Of a stretch of DNA of 64,000 nt, positions 5,249 through 62,907 are shown in pieces. This DNA comes from a virus (Duplodnaviria; Caudoviricetes). Position 1 is the first letter of the stretch. Every line of letters begins with the position of its first letter. Position numbers and translations under genes: made by a program. The notes beneath the pieces are model-generated. The model did not search any database, was not told the DNA's origin, and was given only the letters and a program-made list of their open reading frames with translations. The stretch is from positions 6,744 through 70,743 of IMG/VR virus record IMGVR_UViG_3300035696_000037; one strand, 5' to 3'.

Positions 5249-5824
5249 CTAATCCCGTTTCTCCCAAGAGGTATAATACCCGCTGCATCCCGGAACCGGC
5301 TGGTCGAGGGTGCGGTCGACCCAGTTCCATGCCTCCTCCCGTGCCCTCTCGTGCCACTCCCGGAGGTTCGATGCACCTATGTGCCGATATATTTCCAAGT
5401 ACTCCTTGAGCCCCCCGGACAGCTTGGCGAGGGGCAGGAACACCCACCACGGGGTGATGACGAAGGCGTATTTGTCGGCCAAGGCCAAGGCGGATACGGG
5501 CTGCTCCGCCTTCTTGGCGCAATGGCGGGAATGGTACAGGCAGAACTCGTACCACTTGGGCGGATAGACGGCCCACCAAGCCGATTCTCCCTTCTTGTCG
5601 AATAGCCAGTGGGCTATGCTTGCGCCAAGCTCCGGGTGGGCCTTGCCGTCCTTGCCGTCGATGTCGTCCTTTCCCCAATAGCCGAGGTCATGGATGAAGA
5701 AGCAGACCCATATCCGCAAGTCCTTGGGAAAGCCGAACAACCGCCACCACGCCAGCGCCACGAACAGCGAGTGGATGATTATCTGGTGCTCGCCAAAGAG
5801 CAGGTTTTTGGTCCCGGCCCTCAT
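5249..5824 (-). CDS. HD-superfamily phosphohydrolase-like protein
   Basis: H...'FIHDLGY'...'LYHSRH'...'LADKY' spacing typical of HD domains. Confidence 0.6.
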   Translation of the reverse strand: MRAGTKNLLFGEHQIIIHSLFVALAWWRLFGFPKDLRIWVCFFIHDLGYWGKDDIDGKDGKAHPELGASIAHWLFDKKGESAWWAVYPPKWYEFCLYHSRHCAKKAEQPVSALALADKYAFVITPWWVFLPLAKLSGGLKEYLEIYRHIGASNLREWHERAREEAWNWVDRTLDQPVPGCSGYYTSWEKRD

Positions 5825-6701: not shown

Positions 6702-7082
6702 CTACCCTTCCGTGACGTTGCCGTTCGCTATCGACCTGACCCTTGACAGGTCGAGCGGCTTGGTCATGTTGGGGTTTTCCGGGTCGTAATGCCTCGGGAC
6801 GAAGCCGCCGTTGCGGTCGAATGCCTCCAAGGACGCCATGAGCAGGGTAGCGGTCTTTAGGACATTCCTGTATTGCTCGTCCGGGGTCGCTTCCATGGAC
6901 ACGGCCTTGCCGAGATAGGTAACGGCATAGGCTGCCCAATCGTTCAGGGTATTCTTGTCGTCAAACGCCATGCCCCATATGGCATCTTCGTATTCCCGCT
7001 CACCAATTACCTTTTCGAGGACCGAGGCGATTCGCTGCTCGAAGGCGTTCGTCTGTCCGTAAGTCTCGATTTTTATCCCCAT
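6702..7082 (-). CDS. MazG-like all-alpha NTP pyrophosphatase-fold protein, apparently degenerate
   Basis: ERxYEDAIWG...W...YLGKA...LKTATLLMASLEAFDR resembles the phage MazG-like pattern but lacks the EExGE acidic cluster. Confidence 0.45.
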   Translation of the reverse strand: MGIKIETYGQTNAFEQRIASVLEKVIGEREYEDAIWGMAFDDKNTLNDWAAYAVTYLGKAVSMEATPDEQYRNVLKTATLLMASLEAFDRNGGFVPRHYDPENPNMTKPLDLSRVRSIANGNVTEG

Positions 7083-12362: not shown

Positions 12363-12372
12363 GTATAATACC
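12363..12372 (-). promoter_or_regulatory. Putative -10 element GGTATTATAC
   Basis: Recurrent motif located a few nt before E4. Confidence 0.5.
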
Positions 12373-13207: not shown

Positions 13208-13596
13208 TCGTCGGGATAAATACGGAGCTTCTTACCGGCCAATACCTCGATTCTCTGCCGGTAAACTTGCTTCCCGTACTCGTCCTCGATGCGGATGGTG
13301 TGCGTCCCCGCCTTGAGCCAGAACTTCCTGAGCGTGCCGGTCATCCCGGCGAACCCGCCGTCCACGTAGATGCGGTTGCCCACGGCCTTGGTCTTTATCT
13401 CCACCTTGCCAGCGGCGGAGATGACGACGTAGTTCGGCCCATACGGCCAATACGGGCCGAAGACCCCGCCCGGATACCCCACCGGGCCATAATATACGAT
13501 GTAATGCGGTCCGCCCCAACCCCAAACGGCCTTAGCTGGAGCACATACCGCAAGCGCCAAGAGGATGGCGGCAAGGCATGTCAATATCTTTTTCAT
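13189..13596 (-). CDS. Exported PEGA-like domain protein
   Basis: Signal peptide; 'NRIYVDGGFAG...LKAGTHTIRIE' PEGA-like pattern; GGAGGG RBS. Confidence 0.7.
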   Translation of the reverse strand: MKKILTCLAAILLALAVCAPAKAVWGWGGPHYIVYYGPVGYPGGVFGPYWPYGPNYVVISAAGKVEIKTKAVGNRIYVDGGFAGMTGTLRKFWLKAGTHTIRIEDEYGKQVYRQRIEVLAGKKLRIYPDEKPVKP

Positions 13597-13653
13597 GGCT
13601 GTCCCTCCACATCCATAGATACGGGAAGCCGGGAAAAAGTTGCTCGGACAATC

Positions 13654-14178
13654 CTATTGATTCCTTGTTGCTGCCGAGGCAAGATAGAACTTCGCCACCG
13701 GGTTGCCGGGGTCCATGCGCAGGACTTCCCGGAATTCCTTGGCGGCGTTCGCATCGTCCCCCTTGCCCTCGTATGCTTGGGCAAGGTACTGGTGGGCGTC
13801 TTGGTCTTGGCTGTTGCAGCGCAAGATGTACTGGAACTCGGCAATCGCCTTGTCCCATTCGCCCTTCCGGTTGAGCGCCATGCCGAGGTTGACATGGGCA
13901 TAATAGCTGTTGGGGTTGAGGTGGATTGCCTCGTGATACAGGTCGAGGGCCTTGTCCAGCTTGCCGAAGTTCTCAAGCTCGTCGGCCTGCTCCACGTAGA
14001 GGGCGGCGTTCTTGGGGTCCAAGTGCAAGGCCTTGCGGAACGCGGGCGTGGCACCCTCCCAGTCGAGGCTGGCCCATGAGGCGACCTCGGCGGCCCGGTT
14101 GGAGCAGCGGATGAGCAACGCTACGAGCAGTGCCAAGAGCAACGCCAAAACCGTGTGTTTCCATGTCCAGAAGTTCAT
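13654..14178 (-). CDS. Membrane-anchored TPR-repeat protein (174 aa)
   Basis: N-terminal hydrophobic segment then TPR consensus repeats (AIHLNPNSYYAHVNLGMAL...; VLRMDPGNPVA). Confidence 0.8.
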   Translation of the reverse strand: MNFWTWKHTVLALLLALLVALLIRCSNRAAEVASWASLDWEGATPAFRKALHLDPKNAALYVEQADELENFGKLDKALDLYHEAIHLNPNSYYAHVNLGMALNRKGEWDKAIAEFQYILRCNSQDQDAHQYLAQAYEGKGDDANAAKEFREVLRMDPGNPVAKFYLASAATRNQ

Positions 14179-14209
14179 CTTGTCCTCCTTGTTGTCTTTC
14201 CCCATTTAT

Positions 14210-14235
14210 AGTATACACCAAGGCAAGGCGATTCT
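14210..14235 (-). promoter_or_regulatory. Putative promoter (AGAATC-14 nt-TATACT)
   Basis: TG-TATACT just downstream of the tRNA array, upstream of the TPR gene. Confidence 0.5.
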
Positions 14236-14269
14236 GGGGGGATTCTTTACCTGCAAATCGTCGAAGAAT

Positions 14270-14343
14270 TGGTTCCGGGAACTGGACTCGAACCAATGTT
14301 CTCGGGTCCAAGGCCCGATGTCCTACCATTAGACGACCCCGGA
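14270..14343 (-). tRNA. tRNA-Gln (UUG), C at position 33
   Basis: Full cloverleaf, U1-A72, anticodon loop CCTTGGA, TTCGAGT T-loop, encoded CCA. Confidence 0.88.
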
Positions 14344-14348
14344 ATATC

Positions 14349-14436
14349 TGGCTGGGAAGGGAGGGCTCGAACCTCCATGAACATTAGATGTCTCCGACTT
14401 CAAAGGACGGCGTGTTGCCAATTACACCACTTCCCA
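14349..14436 (-). tRNA. tRNA-Gln (UUG) with long variable arm
   Basis: Acceptor TGGGAAG/CTTCCCA, G73, CCA; loop CTTTGAA; 17-nt variable region with GACAT/ATGTT stem. Confidence 0.8.
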
Positions 14437-14439
14437 AAA

Positions 14440-14525
14440 TGGAGCCGGGTGGGAGAGTCGAACTCCCGTGGGGTTTCCCCTCCTGCTTACAGGGCAGGCG
14501 CAATCGTCCGCTATGCGAACCCGAC
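14440..14525 (-). tRNA. tRNA-Thr (UGU) with long variable arm and C33
   Basis: Acceptor GTCGGGT/ACCCGGC, U73, CCA; stem CCTGC/GCAGG with loop CCTGTAA; variable arm GGGG-AAA-CCCC. Confidence 0.75.
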
Positions 14526-14531
14526 CAAGAT

Positions 14532-14720
14532 TTATAACCCCCCGACGTGCCAGCCTTTCCTCGGGGGGGACGCCAAGGCGGTTTCGGACATCCACAGGAC
14601 CTTCCACATGCCGGGCATGTCCCTGAAGTCGATGACCTTGCCTTCGCGCAGTTCGGGCTTGTCCTCGACCCAGCAGGTCGTCACCGTATTCCCGCACTGT
14701 ACCTTTACTTGACGCCACAT
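14532..14720 (-). CDS. Small protein (62 aa) embedded in the tRNA array
   Basis: ORF MWRQVKVQCGNT...GWHVGGL fills the gap between two tRNA-Thr genes. Confidence 0.5.
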   Translation of the reverse strand: MWRQVKVQCGNTVTTCWVEDKPELREGKVIDFRDMPGMWKVLWMSETALASPPRKGWHVGGL

Positions 14721-14724
14721 AAGA

Positions 14725-14798
14725 TGGAGCCGCCTGAGAGAATCGAACTCTCGTAACGTGCTTACCAAACACGGTCTCTGCCACTGAGATAAGGCGAC
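14725..14798 (-). tRNA. tRNA-Thr (GGU)
   Basis: Canonical cloverleaf, loop TTGGTAA, U73, CCA. Confidence 0.92.
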
Positions 14799-14806
14799 TA
14801 AACCTA

Positions 14807-14859
14807 TGACCGGGGCGGCGGACGCTCAATCCGCCCATACCCGACTAGCCTCCCGGTCA
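14807..14859 (-). ncRNA. 53-nt tRNA-like mini element (acceptor-like stem plus T-arm-like hairpin, no anticodon arm)
   Basis: TGACCGGG/CCCGGTCA closing stem; GGCGGA-TTGAGCG-TCCGCC hairpin stacked at the 3' side. Confidence 0.4.
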
Positions 14860-14863
14860 AACT

Positions 14864-14939
14864 TGGAGCCGACGACAGGCATCGAACCTGCGACCTCCTG
14901 CTTACGAGGCAGGCGTTCTGCCAACTGAACTACGTCGGC
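14864..14939 (-). tRNA. tRNA-Thr (CGU)
   Basis: Canonical cloverleaf, loop CTCGTAA, G1-C72/C2-G71, U73, CCA. Confidence 0.93.
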
Positions 14940-14999
14940 TCAAGGGACGCCACGAGGGCGACCCCAACTCCTCCCACTATGGTGGGTGAGCTAAAAATC

Positions 15000-15073
15000 T
15001 GGTCCAGTCGGGAAGAGTCGAACTTCCGTTGTGCGATTATCAGTCGCAAGTTCTGCCGTTGAACTAAGACTGG
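15000..15073 (-). tRNA. tRNA-Ile (GAU)
   Basis: Cloverleaf, loop CTGATAA, A73, CCA; one acceptor mismatch (T7:C66). Confidence 0.88.
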
Positions 15074-15089
15074 TCCTTAATTTAATCTT

Positions 15090-15164
15090 TGGTGCGCCCG
15101 GAAGGATTCAGACCTTCGTGACTCCCCTATCGAGGGAGCATATTTATCGCTATATGACAGGCGC
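15090..15164 (-). tRNA. Aberrant tRNA, most likely anticodon GAU (identity uncertain)
   Basis: All four stems pair and CCA is encoded, but T-loop is TCTGAAT, D-loop lacks GG, anticodon loop TCGATAG; acceptor GCGCCTG/CGGGCGC resembles tRNA-Arg. Confidence 0.6.
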
Positions 15165-15170
15165 AAAATC

Positions 15171-15530
15171 TTAACCAAGAATCCTTTTAATCTCTTCCTC
15201 GACCGCCTTGCGGAACAGGTCGAAGTGCTGCTCGAACCCGAGCGGCGGGTTCGTAAACGTGGGCATTATCTCGATGCCTTCGGGGACTGTGTCATAGTCC
15301 CGCTCATGTGGCACCTTGCCGATGTCCCGTACGATATGCACGATGGCCGCCTTCGCCCCGTCCGGCCCGAAAAGTTCGGCGGCCAATTGCACCCCGTGGG
15401 TGTTGTGCCGCATGCGGCGGTGCCGGGGGCCGAACTTCCAGAACAGCCCGTCCATCCACCGGTTCACGTCCTCGTGCCGGTTGCCGAGGATGACTTCGCA
15501 GTCGTGGCAATGCTGCTCGAACTTGGCCAT
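15171..15530 (-). CDS. His-rich hypothetical protein (119 aa), first gene after the attenuator terminator
   Basis: HCHD...HEDVNRWMD...HRRMRHN possible metal-binding pattern; AGGGG RBS. Confidence 0.7.
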   Translation of the reverse strand: MAKFEQHCHDCEVILGNRHEDVNRWMDGLFWKFGPRHRRMRHNTHGVQLAAELFGPDGAKAAIVHIVRDIGKVPHERDYDTVPEGIEIMPTFTNPPLGFEQHFDLFRKAVEEEIKRILG

Positions 15531-15539
15531 AAAGCCCCT

Positions 15540-15570
15540 AAAAACACGAAAGCCGCCATCTCTGGCGGCT
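15540..15570 (-). terminator. Intrinsic terminator (attenuator 3:4 hairpin)
   Basis: AGCCGCCA-GAGA-TGGCGGCT (8 bp, GNRA loop) followed by TTCGTGTTTTT. Confidence 0.7.
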
Positions 15571-15588
15571 GGAGCGTCCTGACTCGGT

Positions 15589-15663
15589 CTATGCCGAGCA
15601 GGCTCCGCCGCCTGCGCCGATAGTTTGCGTTGTTTGCGTCTGCGGCTTGTTCATGCTCAGCAT
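15589..15663 (-). CDS. Putative attenuator leader peptide MLSMNKPQTQTTQTIGAGGGACSA (24 aa; alternative start 15654)
   Basis: Eight consecutive Gln/Thr/Ile codons (CAG ACG CAA ACA ACG CAA ACT ATC); 3' half pairs with the terminator 5' arm; partial SD AGGT 6 nt upstream. Confidence 0.7.
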   Translation of the reverse strand: MLSMNKPQTQTTQTIGAGGGACSA

Positions 15664-15828
15664 CTTCGTACCTAATGGGGGGGCCTTTTTCAAGGTCCCC
15701 CCGGATGATGACCCGCTGTCTTGCCATCCTTGGTCCTGCCAAGGAATCTGCGATGTCATGGGCTATAATAAACGGAGGGAGATTTCGCTCTGGCCTCAAG
15801 GCTCTCGCTACTTTACTTCCTCCCACTC

Positions 15829-15854
15829 ATATAATACCTCGGATAGTTCGTTTT
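15829..15854 (-). promoter_or_regulatory. Putative promoter of the leader/tRNA operon (AAAACG-12 nt-TATTAT)
   Basis: GGTATTATAT motif directly after the stop of the sugar-transferase gene. Confidence 0.55.
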
Positions 15855-15864
15855 TTCGGGTTTT

Positions 15865-16476
15865 TTACACGCCACGCCGGAACAGGACATGGGGTATGGT
15901 AGCCAAAATCAGAAGGGCGTCGTAGGCGAGGCTCCTATTGCGCCTGTACCATCTGTGTAGCTTTACCTCGAACCTCCTCCCCAGCCTGTTCACCTTCTCC
16001 CGTCCGCAAAGCTGGGAAAGCCCCGTCAACCCCGGCACCATGTCCAAGGCCTCCACGTATCCGGGAATCCGCAGGGCGAGATATTGGGCCAAGTTGGATT
16101 CCTCGGGGCGGGGTCCCACGAAGCTCATGTCGCCCTTGAGGATGTTGAAAAGTTGCGGAAGCTCGTCCAGATGGGTAGCCCGGAGGAACCGGCCAACCGG
16201 GGTGACCCGTGGGTCGCCTTTGGTGACGAGGTCCACATCCTTGTTCGTCCCCACCAGCATGGTGCGGAACTTGTACATGATGAATTCCTTCGCCTTCCAT
16301 CCCACCCGCTTCTGCCGGAAGATGATGGGACCATCGGAGGTCAGCCATACGGCGATGGAGATGATGACTAGCAATGGGGCGCTCAGGGCGAGGACGCCGA
16401 GGGTCACCGCCACGTCGAATGCCCGCTTGGCCTTGTGGTACATGGCGCTCATGGTTGTCTGCCCGAATGATTTCAA
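15865..16476 (-). CDS. Monotopic phosphoglycosyl transferase (bacterial sugar transferase, PglC/WcaJ catalytic-domain family)
   Basis: 'KRAFDV' plus hydrophobic helix, 'GPIIFRQKRVG...YKFRTM', 'DPRVTPVGRFLR..HLDELPQLFNILKGDMSFVGPRPE' with Asp-Glu dyad; start may be ATG 16452. Confidence 0.92.
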   Translation of the reverse strand: MKSFGQTTMSAMYHKAKRAFDVAVTLGVLALSAPLLVIISIAVWLTSDGPIIFRQKRVGWKAKEFIMYKFRTMLVGTNKDVDLVTKGDPRVTPVGRFLRATHLDELPQLFNILKGDMSFVGPRPEESNLAQYLALRIPGYVEALDMVPGLTGLSQLCGREKVNRLGRRFEVKLHRWYRRNRSLAYDALLILATIPHVLFRRGV

Positions 16477-16838
16477 CTGCCGACGAACTTGTTCACGATG
16501 ACGCCGTCCACGCCCCCCAATACGTCATTGAGGTACATGAGGGCCTTGAACTTCAGGTTGCTGATTTCGGCCAAAGTACGTTCCCAAGAATCCATGGAGG
16601 CTTGGTACGCCACTTCCTTGGCCTTCTGGAGGTCGGCGGTCAAGAACCCCCCGCACGTATGCCCACGGAACGTCCCCTTGTGGACGAAGAACTTGTACCC
16701 GCCTTGGCAGGTGCAGGGGGCGTCTACTACTATTTCCTCGACGACTCCCGGCTCCATGACGAGGTAGGCGTGCTGCCCCTCGACGAGCTTCAATTCTTGA
16801 TGGTTCCTCCATCCCGGTCCTTTATAATCCAGCGCCAC
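16473..16838 (-). CDS. Hypothetical protein (121 aa)
   Basis: Operon-packed, stop overlaps next start. Confidence 0.6.
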   Translation of the reverse strand: MALDYKGPGWRNHQELKLVEGQHAYLVMEPGVVEEIVVDAPCTCQGGYKFFVHKGTFRGHTCGGFLTADLQKAKEVAYQASMDSWERTLAEISNLKFKALMYLNDVLGGVDGVIVNKFVGS

Positions 16839-43176: not shown

Positions 43177-43203
43177 ATAGAATACCGCGTTCCGGGGGGT
43201 TTT
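43177..43203 (-). promoter_or_regulatory. Putative promoter (AAAACC-13 nt-TATTCT) for the rlpA operon
   Basis: Same architecture as other promoters; overlaps a TTCCGGG/CCCGGAA hairpin. Confidence 0.4.
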
Positions 43204-60196: not shown

Positions 60197-60224
60197 AGAA
60201 TCGCCGCTACGGATGGTATTAAAT
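60197..60224 (+). promoter_or_regulatory. Putative promoter for replication genes (AGAATC-14 nt-TATTAA)
   Basis: Same AGAATCGCC box and spacing as the promoter at 14210-14235. Confidence 0.45.
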
Positions 60225-62897: not shown

Positions 62898-62907
62898 GGT
62901 ATTATAG
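62898..62907 (+). promoter_or_regulatory. Putative -10 element GGTATTATAG
   Basis: Recurrent motif in the intergenic region upstream of the reductase gene. Confidence 0.4.

Follow-up and report, generated by a model that had tools for sequence, protein, structure and literature searches.

Known attenuators and the phage locus

Leader-peptide attenuation is a textbook mechanism, known for bacterial amino acid biosynthesis genes and for a few synthetase genes. In its classical representatives from E. coli and Salmonella (thrL, trpL, hisL, pheL and leuL), a short open reading frame (ORF) with regulatory codons, which in thrL specify Thr and Ile, is followed by an intrinsic terminator ahead of the regulated genes. 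The antiterminator overlaps the 5′ arm of the terminator, and the position of the ribosome decides which of the two forms. A likeness of this arrangement is found in a 64,000-nucleotide stretch (hereafter the window; positions 6,744–70,743) of the viral record IMGVR_UViG_3300035696_000037 (Caudoviricetes), where a 24-codon ORF and an intrinsic terminator precede a small DUF6915-like gene and an array of Ile, Thr and Gln tRNA genes. The contig, 70,743 bp (70.7 kb) long, is a fragment of a large phage from peat, estimated to be 23% complete. Its DNA is listed for three peat-metagenome DNA runs and for no RNA run, and the host is uncultured. Judging from the sequence and from predicted RNA folds, we consider it probable (roughly 80%) that the element is a ribosome-mediated (leader-peptide) transcription attenuator controlling an operon of the DUF6915 gene and the Ile, Thr and Gln tRNAs.

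All parts of the locus lie on the minus strand, in the order promoter-like box, 24-codon ORF, intrinsic terminator, DUF6915 gene and tRNAs. The original prediction, made from the letters of the window, had placed the promoter-like box, the ORF with its control codons and the terminator exactly where we find them, followed by the 119-residue gene:

15829–15849, minus strand: promoter-like block, with a −10-like TATTAT within GGTATTATAT (15838–15829) and a conserved GACTAYCGG-type spacer before it
15677–15704, minus strand: predicted G/C hairpin in the 5′ untranslated region (UTR), just 5′ of the ribosome-binding region of the leader; aligned relatives show a related hairpin or motif
15673–15671, minus strand: AGG, a weak purine-rich Shine–Dalgarno (SD) sequence of the leader, 7 nucleotides (nt) from the ATG
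15589–15663, minus strand: leader ORF, 24 codons and TAG (ATG 15663–15661; TAG 15591–15589)
15619–15642, minus strand: eight control codons CAG ACG CAA ACA ACG CAA ACT ATC (Gln-Thr-Gln-Thr-Thr-Gln-Thr-Ile)
15594–15612, minus strand: predicted 5′ strand of the antiterminator (segment 2), within the last nine codons of the leader; pairs with 15587–15564
15564–15587, minus strand: predicted 3′ strand of the antiterminator (segment 3), its final six bases being the terminator 5′ arm
15540–15570, minus strand: intrinsic terminator, an 8-bp stem with a GAGA loop (15570–15551) and an interrupted U tract (15550–15540)
15171–15530, minus strand: 119-residue DUF6915 gene, first of the operon, starting 10 nt beyond the U tract
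15090–15165, minus strand: degenerate tRNA-like element with a GAU-type anticodon loop and a cloverleaf-like fold, aligned with the Ile genes of relatives
15000–15073, minus strand: tRNA-Ile (GAU), called by ARAGORN and Rfam
14864–14939, minus strand: tRNA-Thr (CGU), called by ARAGORN and Rfam
14725–14798, minus strand: tRNA-Thr (GGU), called by ARAGORN and Rfam
14440–14525, minus strand: tRNA-Thr (UGU) with an inserted long variable arm, called by ARAGORN and Rfam
14349–14436, minus strand: tRNA-Gln (UUG) with an inserted long variable arm, called by ARAGORN and Rfam
14270–14343, minus strand: tRNA-Gln (UUG), called by ARAGORN and Rfam

The array had been described as seven tRNAs. Six of them are called by both ARAGORN and Rfam and are the only tRNAs of the window, with the leader directly upstream. 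The first, a proposed GAU tRNA at 15165–15090, receives no call from either program and is a degenerate copy; at the equivalent position, relatives have a normal first tRNA-Ile(GAU).

With the classical leaders the locus also shares a span of ~75–100 nt between control codons and terminator end and a full-length RNA that prefers the terminator at equilibrium, as in trp. As read from the sequence, its anatomy is the one that defines leader-peptide attenuators, with the exception of the 1:2 protector helix, of which no clear counterpart is predicted. It differs further in that it would regulate tRNAs and one small protein rather than biosynthetic enzymes, in that its codons are spread over isoacceptors instead of being repeated, and in having no sequence or Rfam-model similarity to thrL or its classical counterparts (no match at E ≤ 1). 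In fact, no non-tRNA Rfam family, T-box and Thr_leader included, matches window positions 13500–16500 at this threshold, and in six relatives no Rfam family covers a leader, the only matches being sub-threshold chance ones elsewhere.

Mixed control codons, through which one leader senses several amino acids, are a feature of the multivalent ilvGMEDA and ilvBN leaders. In the phage, by comparison, the mix equals the set of downstream tRNAs and reaches up to nine amino acids in a sister cassette. The pheM leader of pheST also attenuates a component of the decoding machinery, with feedback through the level of charged tRNA, but pheST encodes a synthetase, whereas the output of the phage element would be tRNA genes and the sensed molecule would be the product itself. 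T-box riboswitches, too, report the state of a specific tRNA through the choice between terminator and antiterminator. However, T-boxes bind uncharged tRNA directly, with no ribosome or ORF involved, whereas the phage leader has an ORF with cognate codons and no match to the T-box model. A full-text literature search, with subscription journals outside its coverage, found no account of trp-operon-style attenuation of tRNA genes and, as the original prediction had supposed, no described attenuator of a phage tRNA cluster.

Leader codons and tRNA anticodons

Relatives of the locus were gathered from IMG/VR and peat metagenomes by means of the DUF6915 protein and a leader 16-mer, which gave 12 loci with 11 distinct leaders and with DUF6915 proteins 52–79% identical to that of the window. 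The leader ORF is retained at every one of them: it starts with ATG, has 20–31 codons and a Thr/Gln/Ile-rich core, and 18–33 nt separate its stop codon from a downstream G+C hairpin followed by a U tract. From relative to relative, Thr and Gln trade positions in the core without giving way to other residues, and Ile closes the run. C-terminal peptides of different lineages bear no relation to one another, while the Gly-Gly-Gly-Ala-Cys end is invariant in group A. More distant DUF6915 homologues (30–49% identical) served as negative controls. None of these has a Thr/Gln/Ile leader, and none has a tRNA nearby, except for the tRNA-Thr(CGU) beside the Solibacter copy (L107). An exact 16-mer scan of viral contigs returned 75 loci, mostly chance matches in Gly-rich coding DNA; its sole addition was the L020/L039/L040 group.

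In all six frames of the 70,743-bp contig, the leader core is the only run of at least eight consecutive Thr/Gln/Ile codons, with 0.01 such runs expected per genome according to first-order Markov simulations. The leader frame is open further 5′, to an ATG at 15759 (56 residues), and homologues favor a start at 15663 or 15654.

All eight control codons are readable by the tRNAs of the array, and the match extends to the choice among synonymous codons. In the 11 distinct leaders, with P values that are indicative only because the lineages are related, CAA accounts for 20 of 23 Gln codons compared to 31.6% in phage genes (P = 6e-8), ACA for 13 of 66 Thr codons compared to 5.9% (P = 1e-4), ACT for 14 of 66 compared to 8.3% (P = 9e-4), and ATA, the Ile codon without a tRNA in the array, for one of 20 compared to 26.5% (P = 0.017). 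The UUG anticodon, carried by both Gln tRNAs of the array, reads CAA best. Moreover, all three classes of Thr codons (ACG, ACA and ACY), one per Thr tRNA of the array, are present in 11/11 leaders, a pattern with a joint probability of 2e-7, or 6e-5 when only seven lineages are counted.

One relative makes it possible to follow the correspondence beyond a single array. G004, the contig of locus L002, is 317 kb long and 99% complete, and it encodes 62 tRNAs in four arrays. The three arrays other than the Ile/Thr/Gln one each have their own leader ORF, antiterminator and terminator:

Array 1: Tyr, Leu (six) and Ser (three) tRNAs; leader at L112:2078–2170, with a core made almost only of Leu, Ser and Tyr
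Array 2: His, Arg, Asn, Lys, Phe, Met, Pro, Gln-CUG and Trp tRNAs; leader at L113:2056–2145, its first 17 residues drawn only from these nine
Array 3: Val, Gly, Ala, Asp, Glu and Cys tRNAs; leader at L114:7622–7723, minus strand, with a core of Val, Asp, Glu, Ala, Cys and Gly

In each of these three, the leader is the sole ATG-started ORF of 18–45 codons within 260 nt 5′ of the first tRNA. Further leaders of the array 3 type are present at L115:1971–2081 and L116:651–761. The leader of array 1 contains five different Leu codons and all three classes of Ser codons, matching the isoacceptors present. For Gln, CAG is the codon of the leader that precedes tRNA-Gln(CUG), and CAA is that of the leader preceding tRNA-Gln(UUG). 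When the readability of each leader's codons by each array was tabulated (4×4), the diagonal values were 0.80, 0.89, 0.57 and 0.71, and the off-diagonal values were 0–0.22; binomial P values against background codon usage for the four diagonal matches were 1e-8, 1e-7, 0.04 and 3e-6. Leader codons thus track tRNA content, as had been proposed, both in the anticodon-level bias and along the diagonal of this matrix. Each of the three sister leaders is followed by a terminator, the 5′ arm of which can be sequestered by a hairpin that holds the stop codon (z down to −8 in a spacer-shuffle test that covered four sister-cassette leaders). By comparison of sequences, the cassette of the window is one of four such cassettes of complete relatives, which jointly cover all 20 amino acids. 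As to their composition, the G004 blocks comprise class-II tRNAs (Tyr/Leu/Ser), tRNAs mostly for GNN codons (Val/Gly/Ala/Asp/Glu plus Cys), the nine-isotype set and Ile/Thr/Gln.

Predicted folds and the proposed switch

Among terminator-like sites on the minus strand of the first 20 kb, the one at 15570–15540 ranks first. Across nine relatives, 98.6% of the alignment cells in its stem are paired, and two pairs have changed on both sides. The original prediction paired leader nucleotides 15612–15602 with 15575–15564, extended by CTG/CAG and CTCGG/CCGAG, and ViennaRNA predicts this same helix for a transcript that lacks the 3′ arm of the terminator. In this truncated RNA the 5′ arm of the terminator pairs with GGCGGC of the leader's Gly codons, and the stop codon lies in the apical part. 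The predicted free energy of the window antiterminator is −33.6 kcal/mol, compared to −25.3 ± 2.6 with shuffled spacers (z = −3.2). All 12 leaders have the stop codon inside a hairpin that sequesters the terminator 5′ arm; antiterminators range from −23 to −37 kcal/mol, with spacer-shuffle z values of −1.0 to −3.2, and terminators from −12 to −16 kcal/mol. The middle stems of the antiterminator vary in sequence between lineages with pairing kept, although the register of the middle helix in the window is not common to all of them. Segment 2 is invariant at the nucleotide level in nine group-A leaders, third codon positions included; such invariance at synonymous sites of the last codons suggests that the constraint acts on the RNA rather than on the peptide.

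Ribosome-masked folds of truncated transcripts, computed with ViennaRNA for seven leaders to represent co-transcriptional folding, show the pattern expected of such a switch. With the A site on Thr or Gln codons, the terminator 5′ arm is paired upstream with a probability of 0.83–1.0 in the six closest leaders and 0.72–0.92 in L084. Once the ribosome is beyond the Ile codon, the values fall to 0.02–0.7 and ~0.53, respectively. In truncated folds without a ribosome, the antiterminator wins.

A promoter internal to the operon would have spoken against such a mechanism, but no copy of the phage promoter motif was found between the terminator and the tRNAs. Across the 12 related loci, the ATG of the next gene lies only 9–27 nt beyond the terminator stem, too short a gap to accommodate a promoter. 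The promoter-like box ahead of the leader is kept in eight of nine group-A loci, 140–200 nt 5′ of the leader ATG (L094 being the one without it), and in ten of the 12 loci overall, 140–250 nt upstream. At this position, L095 and L096 carry the canonical form TTGACA-N16/18-TATTAT.

Taken together, these observations suggest the following model. Transcription would begin at the conserved promoter-like box, and a ribosome would translate the 24-codon leader, in the core of which each tRNA species of the array is sampled by at least one codon (ACG, ACA, ACY, CAA/CAG and AUY). If decoding is fast, the ribosome would reach the Gly codons and the stop codon, which belong to the antiterminator's 5′ strand and apical loop, and melt this hairpin; the 5′ arm of the terminator would then be free, the 8-bp terminator would form, and RNA polymerase would stop 10 nt ahead of the DUF6915 start codon. 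If any of the sampled codons is decoded slowly, the ribosome would stay upstream, the antiterminator (15612–15594 with 15587–15564) would hold the terminator 5′ arm, and transcription would continue into DUF6915 and the tRNAs. Since the products of the operon are the molecules being sensed, such a circuit would constitute negative feedback, making the supply of phage tRNAs self-limiting and demand-driven. We infer leader translation, the direction of the switch and its physiological trigger from sequence patterns and modeled folds; ordinary demand, host shut-off and host nucleases that deplete tRNAs are candidates for the trigger. tRNA depletion by host nucleases is a documented antiviral strategy (PMC13462974).

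Several observations weigh against this model. At equilibrium, the full-length RNA of the window, L001, L006 and L004 keeps the terminator even with a stalled ribosome, and that of L003 loses it only in part; given that the terminator is favored at equilibrium, a switch could only be kinetic. The folds show no convincing 1:2 protector or pause hairpin, the element that synchronizes ribosome and polymerase and causes super-attenuation of an untranslated leader, the nearest structure being a 5-bp GCCGC/GCGGC helix around the control codons in some minimum free energy folds. The 2:3 antiterminator and 3:4 terminator proposed originally are supported by prediction; with no strong 1:2 helix predicted, an untranslated leader should read through. 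Alignment-based covariation in nine close leaders did not rise above shuffled controls. The SD sequence of the leader is weak (AGG or GAGA). For most isoacceptors the leader offers just one or two codons, so the expected sensitivity is below that of tandem runs such as hisL, and the leader also has non-cognate codons (Met, Leu, Ser, Asn, Lys and Pro, with a conserved Pro-His in relatives). Finally, if the 15838 box is the promoter, the 5′ UTR is ~165 nt, long for a classical leader.

We also considered explanations other than attenuation in the service of tRNA supply. The one that survives best, though we regard it as improbable, accepts the same attenuator but takes amino acid starvation or a general slowing of translation as its signal, and DUF6915 or translational capacity, rather than tRNA homeostasis or counter-defense, as the relevant output. 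Stalling reports charged tRNA, and it is established from the trp, thr and ilv attenuators that lack of an amino acid cannot be told apart from lack of its tRNA; DUF6915 is, moreover, the first gene of the operon. However, three of the four G004 cassettes are without any protein gene, the first tRNA following ~10–30 nt beyond the T-tract. In addition, the matching reaches the level of isoacceptors and anticodons (CAA versus CAG, three Thr classes, avoidance of ATA), which is more than an amino acid sensor would need.

Much less likely still is a non-coding structured leader or small RNA with an ordinary terminator, in which the open frame and a core rich in C and A but poor in G, for instance a Rho-loading or unstructured stretch, would be by-products. 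The core is indeed A/C-rich, the covariation statistics within the close group are weak, and so is the SD sequence. Nevertheless, the frame, the ATG and a stop codon inside the antiterminator loop are kept in 12/12 leaders of differing length, all of which have frame +1 interrupted by stops. ACG, ACT and ATT are frequent in the cores, hence these are not simply A/C-rich, and no Rfam family matches. The match of codons to anticodons over four arrays is inexplicable without translation.

The notion that the ORF encodes a functional micropeptide with its own terminator, incidentally located 5′ of tRNAs, would account for the conservation of the ORF and of the group-A Gly-Gly-Gly-Ala-Cys terminus, but it is very improbable, given that the core keeps composition rather than peptide order, the invariant C-terminal part is invariant at synonymous positions as well, the C-termini of other lineages are unrelated, the leaders of other arrays differ widely in composition and mirror their own arrays, and there is no promoter space after the terminator.

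Accompanying genes, promoter boxes and biological meaning

The 119-residue protein matches Pfam family PF21866 (DUF6915) with an E-value of 1.6e-5 and 25.4 bits, just under the 27-bit cut-off. Its homologues align across the whole core, with invariant His, Cys, Asp and Arg positions. An AF2 model of the protein is a helical bundle with a predicted local distance difference test (pLDDT) score of 84.6. A Foldseek search with this model against PDB gave no match at E ≤ 0.001, and VIA-align gave no informative match, the best Z of 5.2 being to generic helical bundles. The full-text literature search, again outside subscription journals, found nothing on DUF6915.

DUF6915 homologues with 45–63% identity also occur in tRNA arrays of other content. 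One (L097:420–773) lies within an array in which two Ser tRNAs precede the gene and Tyr, Asn, Met, Val, Ile and Arg tRNAs follow it, and another (L099) is part of a His, Arg, Thr, Thr array. The presence of DUF6915 in arrays of differing content points to an association with tRNA arrays in general. The homologue adjoining tRNA-Thr(CGU) in L107 (49% identical) belongs to a Candidatus Solibacter metagenome-assembled genome (DATJVU010000021.1), an Acidobacteriota bin, a weak hint at Acidobacteriota as the host phylum of these peat phages.

At two loci, other genes stand between the attenuator and DUF6915. In L092 (1999–2340), the first gene behind the same attenuator encodes a 113-residue RF-1-domain protein (PF00472, 38 bits against a cut-off of 35) with a GGQ motif, and is followed by DUF6915 and the tRNAs. 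We read this protein as ArfB-like, which would fit the theme of ribosome stalling. No RF-1 domain gene was found in the window's own contig, a 23%-complete fragment. In L094 (838–1326), an HExxH protease-like ORF has a weak match to Peptidase_M50B, below the cut-off.

Some of the tRNAs are themselves unusual. In the degenerate element at 15090–15165 the stems are intact, CCA is encoded and position 33 is a C. According to the Rfam alignment, the inserted long variable arms measure 14 nt in tRNA-Gln(UUG) and 11 nt in tRNA-Thr(UGU) (window 14349–14525). Long variable arms are unusual for Gln and Thr isotypes; equally long Thr-UGU and Gln genes are present in relatives, for example at L001:4060–4141 and L095:2733–2920. 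Just 5′ of the leader's promoter in L095 (817–973), there are two tRNAs with the anticodon CUA (amber suppressors, labeled Pyl by ARAGORN), which hint at TAG reassignment or suppression in that phage.

The promoter 10-mer has six copies in the window at ≤1 mismatch, compared to 0.84 expected. A scan of the window located GGTATTATA-type boxes (≤1 mismatch) in addition to the one before the leader:

5271–5280, minus strand: GGTATTATA-type box
12363–12372, minus strand: GGTATTATA-type box
43177–43186, minus strand: GGTATTATA-type box
60215–60224, plus strand: GGTATTATA-type box
62898–62907, plus strand: GGTATTATA-type box

Several of them sit just 5′ of gene starts, and they are probably the −10 element of the phage's promoters. 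A box of the same type is also present 5′ of G004 arrays 1 and 3, and a variant, GGTATTATG, was seen by eye at array 2. A second conserved motif, ATTATAGCCC, is located at 15764–15773 in the presumed 5′ UTR, ~66 nt 3′ of the promoter box, and is common to the window, L003 and L005; its role may be that of an alternative −10 or of a structural element.

A broader and distinctly more tentative possibility is that the cassettes act jointly as a codon-resolved "tRNA thermostat" of the phage. In it, four leaders would sample isoacceptors for 20 amino acids, and each would induce only the tRNA block for which codons are currently decoded slowly. The host tRNA pool might then be replaced on demand, for instance after the action of anticodon nucleases or after phage-induced host shut-off, in a form of inducible counter-defense rather than constitutive carriage.

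The locus points to a virus that places tRNA genes themselves under attenuator logic, with codon–anticodon bookkeeping at the level of isoacceptors and with four cassettes spanning the genetic code. If the proposed mechanism is true, the carriage of phage tRNAs would be regulated by decoding demand, beyond mere presence or absence, and the leaders would be natural, compact sensors of individual tRNA pools. They would also provide a new bioinformatic handle, as the composition of a leader would predict the content of the array downstream. Furthermore, the mechanism would bear on why large phages carry many tRNAs, be it to compensate for codon usage, to replace degraded host tRNA or to escape tRNA-targeting defense.

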